DNA of 10,857 bases, taken from positions 1-10,857 of the forward strand of contig JAWCLA010000026.1 in the NCBI GenBank assembly GCA_039091855.1, written 5' to 3'. The notes under the pieces were generated by a model. That model was not told the DNA's origin and searched no databases. It was given only the letters and a program-made list of their open reading frames with translations. Below are positions 129-10,857 of the stretch, piece by piece (position 1 is the first letter of the stretch; the number at the start of each line of letters is the position of its first letter). The translations under genes and the position numbers were made by a program. This DNA is from Candidatus Aenigmatarchaeota archaeon (GTDB taxonomy: Archaea; Aenigmatarchaeota; Aenigmatarchaeia; QMZP01).

Positions 129-1355
129 ATGATAGCCCTTAACTGGGAGCCAAAGACAGGGATTTGGTGCGAGGAGGAGGATGGAAAGGAAAGGTTGAGG
201 AAGAACTTTTTCGGCGAGTTCAGAGACGAAAGGATATTCCTAAACCCAGAGGAGGCGCTTTACATCATAACGTTCCTAAATGGCGTTTGCTACAAAAGCG
301 GAAACCCTGTCGGCTTCAACGATATAGCATCTCATTACATAAGGCAGAACCCAAGGCTTATGGTTGACTACAACGCCTACAGGGACTGGAGGGACAGGGG
401 ACTGATACTGAAAAAATTCGGCGAGGTAAAGCTCCAAAAGGAGCCAAAAAAGCCGAAGGGGGAGAAAAGGTACCCGGCAAAGGGCCTGAAGGTAGAGAGC
501 ATACCAGAAAAGGCTCACTGGTACCCTGAATCGCTCTTTGCTGTTGTTGACGAGCAGAAAATCGGGGAGGAACTTTTCAACAAATACTGGTTCGGACAAC
601 TTGGGGTTTACAGGCAGGAAAGGGGAAACCTGTTAAGGCTCGACTTTATGGAAACCATATTCCTGTCAAAGATGTTCGGGCTGAAAGTGATAGATTCCTC
701 CACAGGAAAGCTTGTGACGGGTGAACATATTTTAGAACAGGTTTCAAAGAAGCGCGAACACGCAAGAAGGCTTTACGAGGTTTACGAGGACTGGAGGATG
801 AGGGGATATGTTGTAAAGACAGGCTTCAAGTTCGGCTCGCACTTCAGGATATATTTCCCGGGCGCATCGCCCGCCCTCTCACCCAGCAAGCAGGGAAACG
901 AAAAAAAGGAGTGGATACATTCAAGGCACGTCCTTCACGTCTTCCCAAAGGAGCAGAAGCTTCTTGTTTCGGAGTGGGCGCGGGCAGTGAGGGTGGCGCA
1001 CAGCGTTAAAAAAACCTTTCTCCTTTCTGTTCCCGAGCTGAAGGAAAAGGATATAAGGGAGTTTGGCGTGGCATCGGAATTTCTCGCCTACAGGAGAAAG
1101 AAGCAGGGACAGAATCTCGTGAGGGAGAACCCTGAGGAAGACAAGCCAAGATACCTTTTGGTTGCCTTTTCAGAGGATGACCACATAGGTGGCGTTGAGC
1201 TCGCAAGCCTGCTGAAAAAGGCAGAGTCCCTCGGGCTTCAGCTGCTGCTTTCAATAACCGACAGGGAGACATCAATAACCTATTACGTCCTTAACAAGAT
1301 AGTCCTGCCAGACTCGGAGAATGAGTATTACGAGATAGAGTGGATGAAGCCATAG
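129..1355 (+). CDS. endA: tRNA-intron (splicing) endonuclease, three-unit epsilon2-like architecture
   Basis: 408 aa. Catalytic unit with YEDWRMRGYVVKTGFKFGSHFRIY (Tyr), WIHSRH (His) and RVAHSVKK (Lys). Duplicated N-subdomain (LNPEEALY..AYRDWRDRG). Third C-subdomain unit ending YYEIEWMKP. Confidence 0.95.
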   Translation: MIALNWEPKTGIWCEEEDGKERLRKNFFGEFRDERIFLNPEEALYIITFLNGVCYKSGNPVGFNDIASHYIRQNPRLMVDYNAYRDWRDRGLILKKFGEVKLQKEPKKPKGEKRYPAKGLKVESIPEKAHWYPESLFAVVDEQKIGEELFNKYWFGQLGVYRQERGNLLRLDFMETIFLSKMFGLKVIDSSTGKLVTGEHILEQVSKKREHARRLYEVYEDWRMRGYVVKTGFKFGSHFRIYFPGASPALSPSKQGNEKKEWIHSRHVLHVFPKEQKLLVSEWARAVRVAHSVKKTFLLSVPELKEKDIREFGVASEFLAYRRKKQGQNLVRENPEEDKPRYLLVAFSEDDHIGGVELASLLKKAESLGLQLLLSITDRETSITYYVLNKIVLPDSENEYYEIEWMKP

Positions 1356-4486: not shown

Positions 4487-4784
4487 GTTTATACCTCCGT
4501 GTCAAAGCAGCCGCAGTGAGATGACCGGCGGTTGCTATATAGTTAGTAGTAGGAAATGGGGTTTGGATTTATAAAGGTATCGTTGTATTGCTCTATGAGG
4601 TCGTGGAAACTCATTATGGAAGCGGAAATGTTGGACCTATTGTATACGGCAAGAATTAGTGAAAATACCCTGAGGGGAATTTTGTGGAAAAGCTGTCGGT
4701 TTCATAGGAGAAGATTGCAGTTTATTTATTTGGTTTGCAGTTACCCTGATGCCAACCTTAAATAATCCTGTGCAAAATATTCTT

Positions 4785-5246
4785 ATGCTTAATGAGATTG
4801 CTCTCGTGGCTTTTGTGGCAATGCTTCCTGTCTCAGAACTGAGGGGGGCAATCCCTCTTGGAATCTCGTTGGGTCTTCCTCTTGAATATGTTATAATTGT
4901 TTCATTGTTTGCAAACTGCCTTGCATTCTTTCCAATATACTTTGGACTTGAACTTTTGTACGAGAGGTTTTTTATAAGATACCTTTTTTGCAGGAATTTG
5001 ATGGAAAAAAGCAGGAAAAGGGTAGAGCCTTACATAAGCAGGTACGGGATTATCGGGCTGGCTGTTTTTATTGGAATCCCACTGCCAGTCACTGGGGTTT
5101 GGACAGGGACAATTGTGGCGTGGGTTCTCGGGCTGGATTGGAAAAAGTCCTTTCTCGCAGTCTGTTTGGGAGTTCTTATGGCAGCAGCAATAGTTAGCAT
5201 GGTAGTTCTGGGATTTTTGGCAGGCTTGGGATTTGTTTTGGGATGA
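4785..5246 (+). CDS. COG2426 / putative small multidrug export membrane protein
   Basis: MLPVSELRGAIPLG and FIGIPLPVTGVWTG motifs with several TM helices. Start at 4785 is preferred over 4749 because TATA-like CTTAAATA at 4757-4764 implies a leaderless mRNA. Confidence 0.88.
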   Translation: MLNEIALVAFVAMLPVSELRGAIPLGISLGLPLEYVIIVSLFANCLAFFPIYFGLELLYERFFIRYLFCRNLMEKSRKRVEPYISRYGIIGLAVFIGIPLPVTGVWTGTIVAWVLGLDWKKSFLAVCLGVLMAAAIVSMVVLGFLAGLGFVLG

Positions 5247-5261
5247 TTGAATAAAAACTCT

Positions 5262-6422
5262 CTATTTCAACCCCAGCTCCTTCTTGAGTTGTGGAACCTT
5301 GTCCGTCTTTTCCCATGTGAAGTCCGGATCATTCCTGCCGAAATGCCCGTATGCAGCTGTTTTTTTGTATATTGGCCTGAGAAGTTTAAGGTGCTCTATT
5401 ATTCCCCTTGGTGTTAGAGGGAAAATCTTTCTGACTGCCTCTGAGATTTTTTCGTCAGGAACCTTTCCTGTGCCAAAGGTGTGGATGAGGACAGATACCG
5501 GCTGTGCGATCCCTATTGAGTACGCAAGCTGAACCTCGCACTTTTCAGCGGCTCCGGATGCAACTATGTTCTTTGCTATGTATCTCGCCATATAGGCGGC
5601 AGAGCGGTCAACCTTTGACGGGTCCTTTCCTGAGAAGCAGCCGCCTCCGTGCCTGCCCATCCCCCCATAAGTGTCAACTATTATCTTTCTTCCTGTTACC
5701 CCGGTATCCGCCTCTGGTCCGCCTATCGCAAACACGCCTGTCTCGTTTATGAATATCTTTGTCTTGTCATCCATCCACTTGCCACATACAGGCTTTATCA
5801 CATGCTCTGTTATGTCATGCCTTATCTTGCCGTTTTCAACTTCAGGGTTGTGGTGAACTGCAATAACAACAGCATCAACCCTTTTTGGCTTGCCGTCAAC
5901 ATACTCAACCGTGACCTGTGACTTGCCATCAGGCCTTACCCAGTCAAGTATCTTTTTCTTCCTCACTTCAGCCAGTCGCATTGTAAGCTTGTGCGCGAGC
6001 ATTATTGGAAGCGGCATAAGTTCGGGTGTCTCGTTGCAGGCAAAACCGAACATCATTCCCTGGTCTCCCGCGCCTTGTTCATGGTTTTCTGTCTGGTTTA
6101 CCCCTATAGCTATGTTCTGGCTCTGCTCGTGTATCGATGTTAAAACAGCGCAGTCCATACAATCAATCCCGTATTCCGGGTTTGTGTATCCTATCTCCCT
6201 GAGGGTTTCTCTTGCAATCTTTGGTATGTCAACATAGCAGTCTGTTGTTATCTCTCCTGCTATCATAACAAGACCTGTGGTCGTCAGGCATTCCACTGCC
6301 ACCCTTCCTTTTGGATCCTTTGAAAGTATGGCATCAAGTATGGCATCTGATATCTGGTCGCAAATCTTGTCAGGGTGTCCCTCTGTTACTGATTCCGAAG
6401 TGAACAAAAATCTCTCAGCCAT
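5262..6422 (-). CDS. metK: S-adenosylmethionine synthetase, bacterial/eukaryotic type
   Basis: [46 protein letters not shown] and [16 protein letters not shown] motifs. ATG at 6422 (MAERFLF) is preceded by GGAGAG and preferred over the track's 6470 start. Confidence 0.97.
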
Positions 6423-7428: not shown

Positions 7429-7592
7429 TAATATCAGCCCTTTTACAAAAAGGGCTGAACCCCCGTCAGCCCTTTCCAAGAAAGGGTTGATATCCCAAAG
7501 ACGTTACTATAACAATGCAATTGTTTCATATAATGTCAGCCCTTTTACAAAAAGGGCTGAACCCCCAAAAAATTTTACTATAACAATGCAAT
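7429..7592. repeat. Cluster of three palindromic hairpin repeats plus a duplicated 18-mer
   Basis: TCAGCCCTTTT-ACA-AAAAGGGCTGA-ACCCCC at 7434-7464 and 7536-7566 (identical). Variant TCAGCCCTTTC-CAA-GAAAGGGTTGA at 7466-7490. TTACTATAACAATGCAAT at 7504-7521 and 7575-7592. Confidence 0.95.
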
Positions 7593-7651
7593 AGGTGAAT
7601 ATAACAAAGTTGGGGCTATGGTGTAGCTTGGTCTAGCATCGGAGCATGGGG

Positions 7652-7736
7652 ACAAGCCTTTCTTTACAAGAGCCCACGGGCTTCTGCAAAGAAACCCTTG
7701 GGAAAGAAACAGGCAAAAAAGAAGGTCTTGACATCC
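7652..7736 (+). other. tRNA-Pro intron at canonical position 37/38 (85 nt)
   Basis: BHB: central helix ATGG/ACAT (one G-A mismatch), bulges GG^A and CC^T, flanking helices CAAG/CTTG and the anticodon stem. Confidence 0.88.
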
Positions 7737-7757
7737 TGCTTCAGACCCCGGTTCAAA

Positions 7758-7859
7758 CCTGAGCCTTCTTTCCCGAAAGAAGGCCAAGGCTCACCCAGAA
7801 ATGGAGTTACAAAATAACTGAGAAAGTGTTATCCGTTTATTTAAGGCCTGAGGTGAAAG
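7758..7859 (+). other. tRNA-Pro intron at non-canonical position 59/60 (102 nt)
   Basis: Central helix TTCA/TGAA, bulges AA^C and AG^T, T-stem as outer helix. Removal restores TTCAAAT. Confidence 0.88.
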
Positions 7860-7974
7860 TCCGGGTAGCCCCATTATTTCATTCTTTAGAGCAAAAGCTA
7901 ATAGTATTTAAATGGATTTTTTGCAGCCTTGCGGCTAACAATCACTAAGTCCTTAGAACGAACTTATAACCCAA

Positions 7975-8166
7975 TCAAAACCTTCTTCTCTTTGCGAAGC
8001 ACTCTTTGCAGTATACAGGCCTGCCCTCTGTTGGCTTGAAAGGAACTTCCGTATCCTTTCCACACTCAGAACAAACGGCCTTGTGCATTTCTCTCGGACC
8101 GAAATCCCTGCGCTGACCGCCAAAACCGCCTTGCCTGTCGCCGAAGCGCTTTCTTTCAAATGCCAT
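7975..8166 (-). CDS. CxxC-x17-CxxC domain protein (small zinc-ribbon)
   Basis: PREMHKAVCSECGKDTEVPFKPTEGRPVYCKECF with an R/G/F-rich N-terminus. ATG at 8166 is preferred because the TATA box near 8252-8262 would put the TSS downstream of the track's 8238 start. Confidence 0.92.
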   Translation of the reverse strand: MAFERKRFGDRQGGFGGQRRDFGPREMHKAVCSECGKDTEVPFKPTEGRPVYCKECFAKRRRF

Positions 8167-8367
8167 TTTCTTTCTCTTATCGGATTTTTTGTTTCCTTTG
8201 GTGAATCCGCTTTTATCCTTTGCTTTTGGTTCTGACACTATTGGGGATTGGTATTTATATATGTTTTGCAGAATACTCTACAACTGACGATAGCATTTAT
8301 TGAATGATTCATAAAAACAACTAAGGCTAAGCGCCGATGGTCCAATGGCTAAGACAAAGGCCTTCCA

Positions 8368-8434
8368 ACCAAAAAAAGCCTTTCAATAAAAGGCTTGAGC
8401 GAAAGGGAGCTAACGCTTCCATAAGCGAGGGGAA
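8368..8434 (+). other. tRNA-Gly intron at position 37/38 (67 nt)
   Basis: Central helix CTTC/GGGG (two G-U pairs), cut sites CA^A and AA^A. No clear intron-side closing helix, so a bulge-helix-loop type junction. Exact boundary is ambiguous by 1 nt because of A runs. Confidence 0.85.
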
Positions 8435-8455
8435 AGCCTTTTATCCGGGTTCGAA

Positions 8456-8565
8456 ACCCAAGCCTTTTTACAAGAGGCTTCCGCCCTCTTCAAAAAGGCT
8501 AGGGCTTACCCAAAAACAGGCGACATAGTTAACCGATTAAAGGGTTAGCCGTGAATGAAAGAAAA
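8456..8565 (+). other. tRNA-Gly intron at position 59/60 (110 nt)
   Basis: Central helix TTCG/AGAA (one G-A mismatch), cut sites AA^A and AA^T. Removal restores TTCGAAT. Confidence 0.85.
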
Positions 8566-8579
8566 TCCCGGTCGGCGCA

Positions 8580-8672: not shown

Positions 8673-10424
8673 TCATTCATTACTTGTTTTCTTTATTAAA
8701 TTTTTCAAACATTCTATAAAATTTTTATTATCATTAAGTTCATTTTCCTTTTTAAAATCCCAAATGTCTTCTTCTTTGGTTATTTCTTTTAAAAAATCTT
8801 CACTCAATATATCCTTTATGTCATCCCATCTGCCATAGAAATACTCATTTATTAAAGGCAAAATTTTTCTGAACCAAACCCTTCTCAAATCTTCTTCTGT
8901 TTCTACACCCATAAAATAAGAATGTCCTATTTGCTTGTCTCTTTCACCTTTTTCAATTATTCTTTTATTTAATGCTTCCAAAAGCTCCTTCAGATTCACA
9001 CCTTTAATACTTTTGCCTTCCAATATTCTGGCATCAGGCACCATCTCAAAAAACTCAAAGCGCCTTCTTAAAGCAATATCGATTAATGCTATGCTTTTGT
9101 CGGCAGTGTTCATAGTTCCTATTATATACAGGTTTGGAGGGATGGAAAAATTCTCTTGAGAATATGTAAGCTTTAAGATTATTTCATTTTCATTACTTTC
9201 TCTTTTATCTTCTTCAATTAGCGTAATTAGCTCTCCAAATATCTTGGGTATATTCCCACGGTTTATTTCGTCTATAATTAGATAGAATTTTTTATCTCTT
9301 TCTTTCTTTGCCTTGTCTACTATATTTTTTAAGATGCCTGGTTTTATCACATATGTAACTTGCCCACCATCTATTTTTGCTGTGATGCCTTCTACAAAAT
9401 CTTCATAAGAATAACTTGGATGGAAAGTTACAAACTCTATTCTACCTTCATTTTTTATGTTTTCATATTCTTTCTTGACTTTTTCATAATTGCTGAATTT
9501 TTTAAGTTCTTCTGCATCATCACATAGTTTTGTAAAATCCTCACTTCTTTCTATCTTAACTATGACTGCTTTTGTTGCATATGTTTTTCCCGTGCCAGAA
9601 GGACCGTAGATGATTATGTTCAGCGGAAGCTGTGTTTTTGATAGTTTGTTTTCTAAACTAGCAGTTATAGAAGCATTTCGTATATCTATACTATTTTTCC
9701 ATTTTTCGAAAAATTTCTTTCCTTTTTCATTTTTATCAAAATAATTAAACATCATATCTATTTCGTGATAGATTGTTAGATGTTGACCTGAAATTTTACC
9801 AACATAATCAAGATAAAATTCTTTAAACTTTTCAAATTTTTTTGAAAAATTTTCAAAATCATTGTTATCAATTTCTTCATTTAAAATATCTGATAATATG
9901 TTTCTAGAACATGCATTGAATATTGGTATTTTATCTGGGTGTAGAATAGAATATAATTCTAAAATTCTTTTTGTAGCGTAATTTTTCGCATTAACCCCCT
10001 TACCCTTCACTTGTTCAATTAGATTATACACCTTTTCTAATATTTTTGATAAATCTTTTTTTTCTTTCAACCTTTCTATATCAAAAATTATTTGTTTTAG
10101 TTCTTCTATATAACCTTTGTCTAATAATGTTCCAAGTATACTACATGTTCCTCCAAAAAAAACAAGCCAGTCTTTATCTTTATATTTTACATTCCTTCTT
10201 GACAAAAGATATCTCAATTTATCACCAATATCTTTTTCGTCTATGTCTTTTCTCAATTCTTCTACCAAATTTTTTACAATTTCAACTCTTTTACTCCATA
10301 TCGAATCTTCAGTAAAATCATAGTTTCCATCTTCACACACATTTTTTTCCAAAACTAAATTTTTCCAATAATAAAGCAAAGGTTTTACTTTTTCTTTCCA
10401 TTCTTCATCTCGATTTTGAAGCAT
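8673..10424 (-). CDS. mcrB: McrB-family AAA+ GTPase (type IV restriction)
   Basis: Walker A GPSGTGKT, FVTFHPSYSYEDFVEG, Walker B IIDEINRGN, McrB signature MNTADKS, ALRRRF and IGHSYF. About 260-aa N-terminal domain not recognised. Confidence 0.93.
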   Translation of the reverse strand: MLQNRDEEWKEKVKPLLYYWKNLVLEKNVCEDGNYDFTEDSIWSKRVEIVKNLVEELRKDIDEKDIGDKLRYLLSRRNVKYKDKDWLVFFGGTCSILGTLLDKGYIEELKQIIFDIERLKEKKDLSKILEKVYNLIEQVKGKGVNAKNYATKRILELYSILHPDKIPIFNACSRNILSDILNEEIDNNDFENFSKKFEKFKEFYLDYVGKISGQHLTIYHEIDMMFNYFDKNEKGKKFFEKWKNSIDIRNASITASLENKLSKTQLPLNIIIYGPSGTGKTYATKAVIVKIERSEDFTKLCDDAEELKKFSNYEKVKKEYENIKNEGRIEFVTFHPSYSYEDFVEGITAKIDGGQVTYVIKPGILKNIVDKAKKERDKKFYLIIDEINRGNIPKIFGELITLIEEDKRESNENEIILKLTYSQENFSIPPNLYIIGTMNTADKSIALIDIALRRRFEFFEMVPDARILEGKSIKGVNLKELLEALNKRIIEKGERDKQIGHSYFMGVETEEDLRRVWFRKILPLINEYFYGRWDDIKDILSEDFLKEITKEEDIWDFKKENELNDNKNFIECLKNLIKKTSNE

Positions 10425-10857
10425 TTAAACACCCCCATTCAAATTTTTAAAAACTTGCTTTAAATTTTTTACAAGCTCGTCTTTCCAATCCCTTTCCTTT
10501 AGCATAGACAAATCAATTTTTCTGAAATAAATAGAAATTTTATCTTTTTCTATTGTTATAGCATTTTCTTTGCTTTCTTCCTGAATGTGTTGCGGATATA
10601 ATAGAACTCCTTTAACATTTTCATATCCTTCATTTTTGTAAAACCGACAATAAGTATAAATCTGATAAAAATCATTGCTTGGTAAATTACTTTTTTCTTT
10701 AGAAGGCATTTTCTTATATTTTGTGTCTATTACAACAACTTCTTTCTCATTTTCATTATAAACTACTATGTCAGGTATTATTTTCAGATAACCTCCATTT
10801 TGCCACGTCCCCCCTTTTCTCCCTTCTTGTATTTTTATTCTATAATATTTCCCAAAG
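10425..10857 (-). CDS. mcrC: McrC-family PD-(D/E)xK nuclease, 5'-truncated by the window edge
   Basis: The frame stays open upstream of the track's 10709 start to the window end: IIPDIVV..VVVIDTKYKK..DFYQIYTY..GVLLYP, the McrC C-terminal motifs. Its TAA abuts the mcrB ATG. Confidence 0.88.
   Translation of the reverse strand, partial: FGKYYRIKIQEGRKGGTWQNGGYLKIIPDIVVYNENEKEVVVIDTKYKKMPSKEKSNLPSNDFYQIYTYCRFYKNEGYENVKGVLLYPQHIQEESKENAITIEKDKISIYFRKIDLSMLKERDWKDELVKNLKQVFKNLNGGV

Follow-up and report, generated by a model that had tools for sequence, protein, structure and literature searches.

Hairpin-bearing intron cassettes in the tRNA genes of an Aenigmatarchaeota archaeon

The stretch of DNA analyzed here (the window; 10,857 nt) is the entire contig C19 of a genome of Candidatus Aenigmatarchaeota archaeon (G000; 689 kb in 38 contigs, 84% complete), and is also present in four DNA runs labelled as hot-springs metagenomes, but in no listed RNA run. 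It carries two tRNA genes with two introns each, an array of hairpin repeats upstream of the first gene, and a gene for a tRNA splicing endonuclease (EndA). An earlier interpretation of the window (the sequence-only reading) proposed that one mobile palindromic element occupies all four introns and the intergenic DNA, either using the introns as safe havens or generating and spreading them. On the basis of the window, the remainder of the genome and a comparison set of 41 genomes of the order (G000 and its congeners G001-G004 included), we favor prolific EndA-type introns of ordinary mechanism, among which a family of intron cassettes has probably spread through tRNA genes. The features of the window that bear on this are:

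129..1355, forward strand: three-unit (epsilon2-like) tRNA splicing endonuclease EndA, 408 amino acids, with Pfam domains tRNA_int_endo and tRNA_int_endo_N
7434..7572, forward strand: intergenic array of three family units 5' of tRNA-Pro (X 7434-7465, Y 7466-7534, X' 7536-7572)
7573..7611, forward strand: promoter-like stretch (putative function) common to unit Y and a second Pro gene on contig C3
7612..7872, forward strand: tRNA-Pro(GGG), exons 7612-7651, 7737-7757 and 7860-7872, located by custom scan, spliced product accepted by ARAGORN
7652..7736, forward strand: Pro intron 1 (Pro-i1), position 37/38, 85 nt
7758..7859, forward strand: Pro intron 2 (Pro-i2), T-loop position 59/60, 102 nt, with a tail ending in CACCCAGAAA
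8331..8578, forward strand: tRNA-Gly(UCC), exons 8331-8367, 8435-8455 and 8566-8578, located by custom scan, spliced product accepted by ARAGORN
8368..8434, forward strand: Gly intron 1 (Gly-i1), position 37/38, 67 nt
8456..8565, forward strand: Gly intron 2 (Gly-i2), T-loop position 59/60, 110 nt

Standard tools do not recover these genes. ARAGORN reports no tRNA genes in the unspliced window and just four in the whole genome. An Rfam search of the window gives no match at gathering scores and the Rfam tRNA model finds nothing above its cut-off anywhere in G000; at E<=0.01, this model gives 7 to 47 matches in each of 20 relatives. Genes were located with a custom scan that looked for acceptor pairing over 7 bp, a D-arm and a T-stem with a GTTCRA start, and that tolerated insertions. 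The scan yielded 24 credible genes in G000 and a relaxed pass added four. All 28 genes are interrupted, by 56 introns: 22 genes contain two, three contain one and three contain three. Twenty-five introns are located in the T-loop at 59/60, 22 at 37/38, seven in the D-loop and two at 29/30, and the introns account for 0.6% of the genome. Following in silico removal of the 56 inserts, ARAGORN accepts all 28 products with the expected anticodons, including Pro(GGG) and Gly(UCC). As every detected tRNA gene is interrupted and position 59/60 is nearly saturated, standard tools detect almost no tRNAs in G000. The tRNAs of another genome of the set, G005, were considered as references for spliced alignment; they were too divergent and were kept only as intact comparators.

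The introns show a consistent geometry at their splice sites. We assessed the central helix by pairing the four exon nucleotides ahead of the last two exon nucleotides with the four intron nucleotides ahead of the last two intron nucleotides. All four pairs form in 18/25 introns at 59/60 and three in the other 7/25; at 37/38, four pairs form in 12/22, three in 8/22, and two or fewer in 2/22. Other 4-mers of the same introns average 1.6-1.7 pairs. In the window, Pro-i2 and Gly-i1 form 4/4 pairs (two of them G-U in Gly-i1), while Pro-i1 and Gly-i2 form 3/4. The T-loop sequence TTCR pairs with YGAA close to the intron 3' end. The predicted layout is a 3-4-3 bulge-helix-bulge, in which two 3-nt bulges at the splice sites enclose a 4-bp helix.

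The exon-side helix of this motif is the T-stem or the anticodon stem. On the intron side, a helix of at least 8 bp has its foot at intron nucleotides 1-4 in 25/47 introns, compared to 8.0 on average and at most 16 across 200 shuffles; other foot windows give 7-12 of 35-40. Among these introns, the hairpin has the fixed offset from the splice site for which the sequence-only reading proposed a test. The intron-side helix closes directly beside the 3' segment in 3/24 T-loop and 2/17 anticodon-loop introns, and is a local hairpin that leaves at least 10 nt before the 3' pairing segment in 16/24 and 11/17 respectively. Since most long T-loop introns have such a local hairpin and remainder, the predicted splicing motif is relaxed rather than the strict hBHBh' (helix-bulge-helix-bulge-helix) form. 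Because its foot sits where the intron-side helix must be, the hairpin looks like part of the splicing apparatus of the intron and not a passenger in a safe haven.

The four introns of the window differ in detail. As the sequence-only reading stated, AGCCTT is found inside a helix near the 5' end of each, starting at intron nucleotide 4 in Pro-i1, 5 in Pro-i2, 10 in Gly-i1 and 6 in Gly-i2. In Pro-i1, it is contained in a 12-position helix (11 pairs, one mismatch) that runs from nucleotide 2 and closes the intron beside its 3' splice site; there is also an inner local hairpin (7659-7694). Pro-i2 has a perfect 9-bp hairpin (7763-7784) and, over its first 32 nt, exactly matches the T-loop intron of the Pro gene on C3. 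Gly-i1 has a perfect 8-bp hairpin (8376-8396) and a second small hairpin (approximately 8406-8420) that, with its flank, is common to intron 1 of tRNA-Ser(GGA). Gly-i2 consists of a long hairpin (8457-8504, perfect over 8461-8500), a tail extending to 8516 and a second hairpin, and is 84% identical over 87 nt to the T-loop intron of tRNA-Ser(GGA). The string reported as common to Pro-i1 and Gly-i2 (CAAGCCTTT, 0-3 nt, TTACAAGAG; 18-20 nt) was confirmed and is confined to these two sites in the 689-kb genome. The window contains 20 occurrences of AGCCTT itself, where shuffles give 8.9 +/- 2.8 (0/200 reach 20), and the hexamer is found in the first 20 nt of 9/56 introns of G000, against 0.58 expected. 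The check on other introns of the genome is thus mixed: the hexamer is enriched about 15-fold at intron starts, but the remaining 47 introns lack it.

The T-loop introns of at least 60 nt align to a common plan: a linker of 1-5 nt, a hairpin whose interior varies, a tail matching (A/T)RGG..YCCAAARA, a second hairpin and an RGARAR end. The module (hairpin, CCAAAAA tail, second hairpin) is present in 15 introns of G000. Profile searches of this genome identified 21 module loci, namely 14 introns of the census, the T-loop intron of the Pro gene on C3 and six loci outside introns. Four of these six are no more than about 50 nt from a tRNA gene or are placed between duplicated tRNA ends. With 14 of 21 loci in census introns that cover 0.6% of the genome, the enrichment in tRNA introns that had been suggested is evident. 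At an identity threshold of at least 80%, 9/56 introns (16%) fall into three cross-type families, whereas none do in 20 shuffles. Sub-families across unrelated tRNAs reach 84-96% identity over 38-87 nt. The cross-type pairs are Gly-UCC/Ser-GGA, Lys-UUU/two Gln and Trp/Tyr, and a cross-position family links the 37/38 intron of Arg-UCU with the 59/60 introns of Gln and Arg-UCG (90% identity over 40 nt between Arg-TCT 37/38 and Gln-CTG 59/60). Some introns are internally compounded: the Asp 37/38 intron (208 nt; C18 10354-10715) contains three tandem copies of a two-hairpin unit of about 65 nt, and the T-loop intron of Ala (189 nt) consists of a duplicated module in which a different hairpin is nested.

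The window introns vary in their relationship to this family. Pro-i2 represents a sister subtype with a TTTCCCGAAAG loop, which follows the same plan and has BLAST relatives in other genomes. Pro-i1 and Gly-i1 share sub-modules only, the former through its string with Gly-i2 and the latter through its second hairpin with Ser-GGA intron 1. A single covariance model for all subtypes was rejected, as the MAFFT alignments (A1, A2) put two arms out of register between subfamilies. The model used (R1) was built from six consistent copies, none of them from the window, and under-detects the TTTCCCGAAAG subtype; within the window, it finds only Gly-i2 (8455-8516; E=5.6e-4) and one X unit (7532-7572; E=1.5e-4). 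The claim of one element in all four introns is accordingly narrowed: the family is repeated and structured, but a model trained on sequences from elsewhere recognizes one of the four introns and one intergenic copy. Four other loci with arrays and tRNA clusters gave no match to Rfam 15 at E<=0.1. Guide RNAs of the C/D-box or H/ACA kind were considered for the introns and rejected, with no convincing boxes by eye and no Rfam match.

The family extends into intergenic DNA. Each unit of the window array is a hairpin followed by a C-rich/A-run tail. The hairpins at 7434-7458 and 7536-7560 have 11-bp stems, so the intergenic copies previously described are real, although they lie upstream of where they had been placed. 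Unit X spans 32 nt; unit Y spans about 70 nt and aligns lengthwise to the T-loop intron of tRNA-Arg(UCG). By BLAST, the array recurs at 90-100% identity on C2, C3, C6 and C7, giving five loci with the window. The adjoining stretch 7573..7611 is 97% identical to C3 21274-21377 and places a TATA-like run about 28-38 nt 5' of tRNA-Pro. The uniform orientation of copies is true within the window but not beyond it, given that the Ile-GAU 37/38 intron (Ile-GAT in the DNA) carries an antisense copy and the C2 array is antisense to the neighboring tRNA.

These intergenic units raise the alternative that the repeat is a transcription cassette, in which the hairpin and T-run would serve as a terminator or insulator, the A-run and TTTAC-type stretch would serve as a promoter resembling a B recognition element and TATA box, and intronic copies may give rise to trans-joined tRNA pieces. 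One unit lies directly upstream of two Pro genes with its TATA-like run at the spacing given above, other tRNA genes of G000 have TATA boxes ending about 21-25 nt upstream, and one copy is upstream of an open reading frame (ORF) on C33. Runs of 5-7 T, which are expected to stop archaeal RNA polymerase, occur inside introns (e.g. T7 in Arg-TCT 37/38), and the T-stem, acceptor stem and 4-bp helix would together provide 16 bp to hold a separately made 3' piece. However, the separate transcription of such pieces is itself purely a prediction, the intronic TATA-like runs are weak (TTTACCTGAA), the C2 array runs antisense to its tRNA, and a promoter role does not explain why the hairpin foot is at the splice site. 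We consider this explanation quite unlikely.

Other observations concern individual tRNA loci and the abundance of the array. A second Pro tRNA gene, partial and outside the 28-gene census, is located on the reverse strand of C3 (21050-21457); its upstream unit and the start of its T-loop intron are as in the window Pro gene, and a third Pro-like 5' fragment lies ahead of it at the contig end. On C7 (5655-6050), the 3' exon and trailer of tRNA-Ser(CGA) are present twice with an N9 gap and an X/Y array between them. Two population variants were probably joined here during scaffolding, one of them having a far longer T-loop intron made of array units. C6 also has a scaffold gap, at 4600-5500. 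The anticodon loop of tRNA-Ala(GGC) is UCGGCAU in both G000 (C7 9101-9389) and G001 (L074), with C instead of U at position 33; G005 has the usual UUGGCAU. In metagenome runs X1-X4 (contigs only), the X/Y repeat at 7441-7522 has a summed depth of 98-122, and the unique flank from 7646 onward mostly has a depth of 5-11, although values up to 31 are reached in some bins (run X1); the community therefore contains multiple copies of the repeat. The same runs contain loose ends resembling Pro tRNA variants of related organisms. These runs were not used as evidence.

A scan with R1 detected the module in 19 of the 41 genomes of the order, among them every one of the four congeners and each of the five genomes sampled from one other family. 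The 28 loci inspected in relatives comprise 11 T-loop introns, four D-loop introns (tRNA-Leu), two anticodon-loop introns, one locus just upstream of a tRNA and 10 loci without a tRNA feature. Intron copies are sense in 17/17 cases in relatives and 14/15 in G000 (31/32 overall). In a model-fitted alignment of 55 hits, 97.2% of cells are paired, compared to 81.8% in shuffles, and 12/12 hairpin pairs show compensatory changes on both sides. In 15 sequences one pair is G-U, a hint that it is the sense strand that folds.

The arrangement of the window (tRNA-Pro, a zinc-finger ORF and tRNA-Gly) is syntenic in G001, G003 and G004, allowing orthologous introns to be compared between genes whose exons are near-identical throughout. 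The Pro(GGG) 37/38 intron is 85 nt in G000, 32 nt in G003 and 33 nt in G004, and is absent from G001; the T-loop intron of this gene is found in G000 only, the G001, G003 and G004 orthologues being without it. Likewise, the Gly(UCC) 37/38 intron is present in G000 and absent from these three congeners. The Gly(UCC) T-loop intron occurs as three subtypes in the four congeneric genomes: G003 and G004 have one of 63-65 nt that differs in subtype from that of G000, while the 73-nt intron of G001 is of the subtype found in tRNA-Ala of G000. The Ala intron of G001 is in turn of the subtype that G000 has in Gln and Lys. For Gln(CUG), the module is located at 37/38 in G003, where the T-loop is intact, and in the T-loop in G000, where a 13-nt intron occupies 37/38. 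These comparisons indicate that intron content changed after the congeneric species diverged, with the direction of change (gain or loss) unrooted. The proposal of a mobile family gains strength accordingly, as members also occur outside introns and orthologous introns show both presence/absence polymorphism and replacement.

Such turnover bears on whether any mobility is needed. Vertical descent from duplicated tRNA genes, combined with convergent selection for a T-rich/A-rich clamp hairpin beside the splice site in an AT-rich thermophile, would also produce similar introns. The motif is of low complexity (a GC clamp with T and A runs), most introns do not have the literal hexamer, and the two Gln isoacceptors share introns, as do the two Pro genes with their flanks, which fits gene duplication. 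Yet the cross-type identities described above link introns of unrelated tRNAs and were not reproduced in shuffles, conservation covers the tails and second hairpins in addition to the clamp, the presence and subtype of introns vary between syntenic orthologues whose exons are near-identical, and near-identical arrays are found at five loci. We therefore regard an explanation without mobility as very unlikely.

Alternatively, the module may be a non-autonomous DNA transposon of the REP, PATE or MITE kind, moved in trans by, for example, an HUH enzyme of the IS200/IS605 type that would act on single-stranded hairpins, with introns merely tolerating it. Several observations are in line with this: some copies are extra-intronic or arranged as tandem arrays, one of the intron copies is antisense, the Ala T-loop intron has a different hairpin nested in its duplicated module, the Asp intron contains a unit three times over, C37 of G000 has two matches to Y1_Tnp, and 10 of the 28 loci in relatives have no tRNA feature. 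The distribution of Y1_Tnp, the transposase family profiled, nevertheless disagrees. It is found in 9/41 genomes, with 2/19 among module-positive and 7/22 among module-negative genomes, and in none of G001-G004 where turnover is seen; the cognate HUH transposase that had been envisaged is thus not borne out. In addition, one of the two Y1_Tnp copies of G000 has an in-frame TAG, the hairpins flanking the Y1_Tnp gene are unlike those of the introns, and neither TnpB nor reverse transcriptase, the latter also previously suggested, was found in the 84%-complete genome. No target-site duplication is seen beyond the demands of the splicing motif, which accounts for the GAA(A) repeat at both T-loop junctions. 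The sense bias of intron copies (31/32), the hairpin foot fixed at nucleotides 1-4, and the location of all but two G000 loci in or within about 50 nt of tRNA genes further oppose a conventional transposon. Overall, we judge this explanation rather unlikely.

Several related observations were made on recombinases and element ends. The IS200-like Y1 transposase gene with the in-frame TAG is on the reverse strand of C37 (6890-7790), flanked by hairpins of the CCCCGTCATTTATGACGGGG type, and one further hairpin of this type is at C6 53-72. G000 also encodes two tyrosine recombinases. We considered an element boundary at TTAC, which we take to be an IS608-like target, and rejected it since conservation in relatives continues into the second hairpin.

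The enzyme predicted to act on the introns is encoded in the same window. Its EndA matches PDB entry 4fz2_A over the full length (E=1.5e-97); 4FZ2 is mentioned in the text of the paper on the structure of the ARMAN-2 epsilon2 EndA (Hirata 2012, PMC3488258). This EndA is likely the enzyme for these introns, and the suggestion of an endonuclease of the broad-specificity type agrees with the predicted gene. The ARMAN-2 enzyme cut a relaxed 59/60 intron in vitro, according to the available text of PMC3239211. G000 encodes a second, short EndA homologue on C12. Across the 41 genomes, the long EndA is near full length in 35 and occurs as pieces at contig ends in another four; in G005 a weak match to the catalytic unit is all that is seen, and in G012 there is no match. 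With 47 ordinary tRNA matches, G005 also lacks the module, a pattern that fits, without proving, a link between enzyme and introns. In the accessible text of Kaneta 2018 (PMC5829648), the epsilon2 type is described as known solely from the Micrarchaeum group, and certain DPANN tRNA sets are said to have resisted completion. The range of the three-unit EndA now extends well beyond the group of its first description.

Taken together, we assign a probability of about 60% to the explanation that these are prolific EndA-type introns of ordinary mechanism, with a family of intron cassettes spread through the tRNA genes. From the gene structures, motif geometry, family relationships, distribution and polymorphism described above, we infer how splicing, the hairpin and copying may operate. 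The cassette would start 1-4 nt past the 5' splice site with a stable hairpin that acts as the intron-side helix beside the 5' bulge. Four nucleotides near its 3' end would pair with exon sequence (TTCR in the T-loop, or nucleotides 32-35 of the anticodon loop) just upstream of the 5' splice site, and this pairing would form the central 4-bp helix between the two 3-nt bulges. Cleavage at this site would be carried out by the epsilon2-type EndA of the window, and exon joining by a ligase. As the cassette would itself contain one half of the motif, it should be usable in the T-loop, anticodon loop or D-loop. Copies would be gained, lost and exchanged among tRNA genes, tandemly duplicated and nested, and would spill into tRNA-flanking DNA. 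Copying at the DNA level without a dedicated transposase, for instance through recombination or gene conversion between tRNA genes, is favored because no reverse transcriptase or TnpB was found and Y1_Tnp does not follow the distribution of the module. The need to stay spliceable would then account for the fixed hairpin offset and the sense bias.

Several points weigh against this explanation. The local hairpin with a remainder of at least 10 nt (16/24 T-loop introns) is a junction and not a strict motif, and cleavage of such a substrate is hypothetical; splicing and the intron boundaries are likewise predictions. Short T-loop introns (14-57 nt) lack the module, so it is dispensable for a 59/60 intron, and it could be a secondary colonist of introns at this position. 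The antisense intron copy and the approximately 16 copies without a tRNA feature (six loci in G000, 10 in relatives) are at odds with an element linked to splicing alone. Simple gene conversion is weakened because the sharing of intron subtypes does not track T-stem identity. Finally, intron counts in relatives reflect best-scoring loci only, and the census is incomplete, covering 28 anticodons in an 84%-complete genome with a scan in which the standard GTTCRA T-loop start was mandatory.

A more far-reaching version is possible, albeit doubtful: the family may be a self-sufficient intron generator that needs no transposase and is still making and replacing introns in living populations, perhaps with terminator and promoter signals and with adjacent pieces trans-joined. 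The hairpin would then provide one half of the splicing motif and a short, adaptable 3' segment the other, making any exon loop spliceable on arrival. If true, the trans-joined genes would represent an in-situ intermediate between intron-containing and split tRNA genes.

Two further hairpin families and a neighboring gene module were also recorded. The second family (GAAG, 4-5 variable nucleotides, loop, complement, CTTC) forms tandem arrays about 80 nt apart. Its hairpins are also found inside the 37/38 introns of Leu-CAA, Met and Thr-CGU and the 59/60 intron of Ser-CGA, as well as just upstream of tRNA-Gly in relatives. The third (GACGGCTT, loop, AAGCCGTC) adjoins several tRNA genes, occurs nested within the T-loop intron of Ala, and is also found just upstream of one of the two ORFs resembling a Y1 transposase. 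The reverse strand of the window at 8673-10856 carries an AAA_5 ATPase (583 amino acids) followed by an ORF with an McrBC domain; at 27-32% G+C, compared to 40-50% in the rest of the window, this stretch looks like an acquired McrBC-type restriction module. The loci of the two hairpin families in G000 are:

C4 8979-9305, C38 20205-22380, C13 8950-9048, C12 15116-15281 and C1 27684-27780: second hairpin family (GAAG...CTTC)
C37 about 9430-9460, C10 5220-5300, C36 27218-27245 and C7 9101-9389: third hairpin family

Repetitive palindromic elements of several kinds provide one basis for comparison, namely bacterial REP/RAYT, archaeal PATE and the Rickettsia palindromic elements. Like these, the G000 family consists of short hairpin repeats that show compensatory stem changes, occur in tandem and nested, and can lie inside genes without destroying the product. 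In contrast to them, the G000 module has no co-distributed transposase among those profiled (Y1_Tnp) and is strongly biased to tRNA introns, in sense orientation and at a fixed offset from the splice site. It is also predicted to be removed at the RNA level by EndA, whereas palindromic elements are tolerated in proteins or intergenic DNA.

Closer parallels are found among archaeal tRNA introns. ARMAN-2 (Ca. Micrarchaeum) has a homologous three-unit EndA and relaxed-motif introns at 59/60, according to the accessible text of Fujishima 2011 (PMC3239211) and Hirata 2012 (PMC3488258). In those sources, 56% of its genes are disrupted and tRNA-Cys has a 13-nt intron at 59/60; in G000, 28/28 genes are disrupted, T-loop introns reach 189 nt and sequence families are present. 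Caldiarchaeum subterraneum, for which a mobile-element model of tRNA disruption has been put forward, resembles G000 in its population-level heterogeneity of intron content at one tRNA locus and in a gain tied to a repeated element, as described in the available part of Sugahara 2012 (PMC3293823). The element concerned is 1.8 kb and encodes a recombinase, while the G000 repeats are 40-110 nt and non-coding. A paper on direct repeats (PMC11782384) covers just four archaeal introns and is uninformative for G000. Searchable full-text literature, excluding subscription papers and supplements, contained no description of a hairpin repeat common to tRNA introns and intergenic DNA, and nothing on tRNA introns of Aenigmatarchaeota; intron families or DPANN tRNA sets relevant to novelty may appear in the supplementary tables of the papers cited.

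The closest precedent is the intron transposition described in Thermoproteales. Similar introns in different tRNAs and at different positions were reported there by Fujishima 2010 (Mol Biol Evol 27:2233), as summarized in PMC4090602, PMC3239211 and a 2026 preprint, and hence the combination is not as unprecedented as the sequence-only reading supposed. As far as these summaries describe them, the Thermoproteales introns share with those of G000 multiple introns per gene, recent gain and an unexplained mechanism thought to operate at the DNA level. Cross-type families comprise 16% of introns in G000 by our own criterion, compared to 28.3% in Thermoproteales and 1.5% in Asgard by the different method of the 2026 preprint, in the portion available. 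The same portion describes no general way for introns to arrive in Asgard, and the accessible text of a 2014 review (PMC4090602) calls the mechanism by which archaeal tRNA introns arrive at new sites unknown. Unlike Thermoproteales, G000 belongs to a DPANN phylum, its enzyme is epsilon2-like rather than alpha-beta, and position 59/60 is occupied in 25/28 genes. The G000 family is also a defined hairpin-plus-tail module with compensatory changes that occurs as arrays and single copies outside introns. With all detected tRNA genes interrupted, 59/60 near-saturated, recognizable structured families, extra-genic copies and differences between congeners, this lineage is a tractable case in which donor and recipient, as well as gain and replacement, can be directly tested. 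It is of value as a natural system in which to study the gain and exchange of archaeal tRNA introns, and it may show how such inserts spread.

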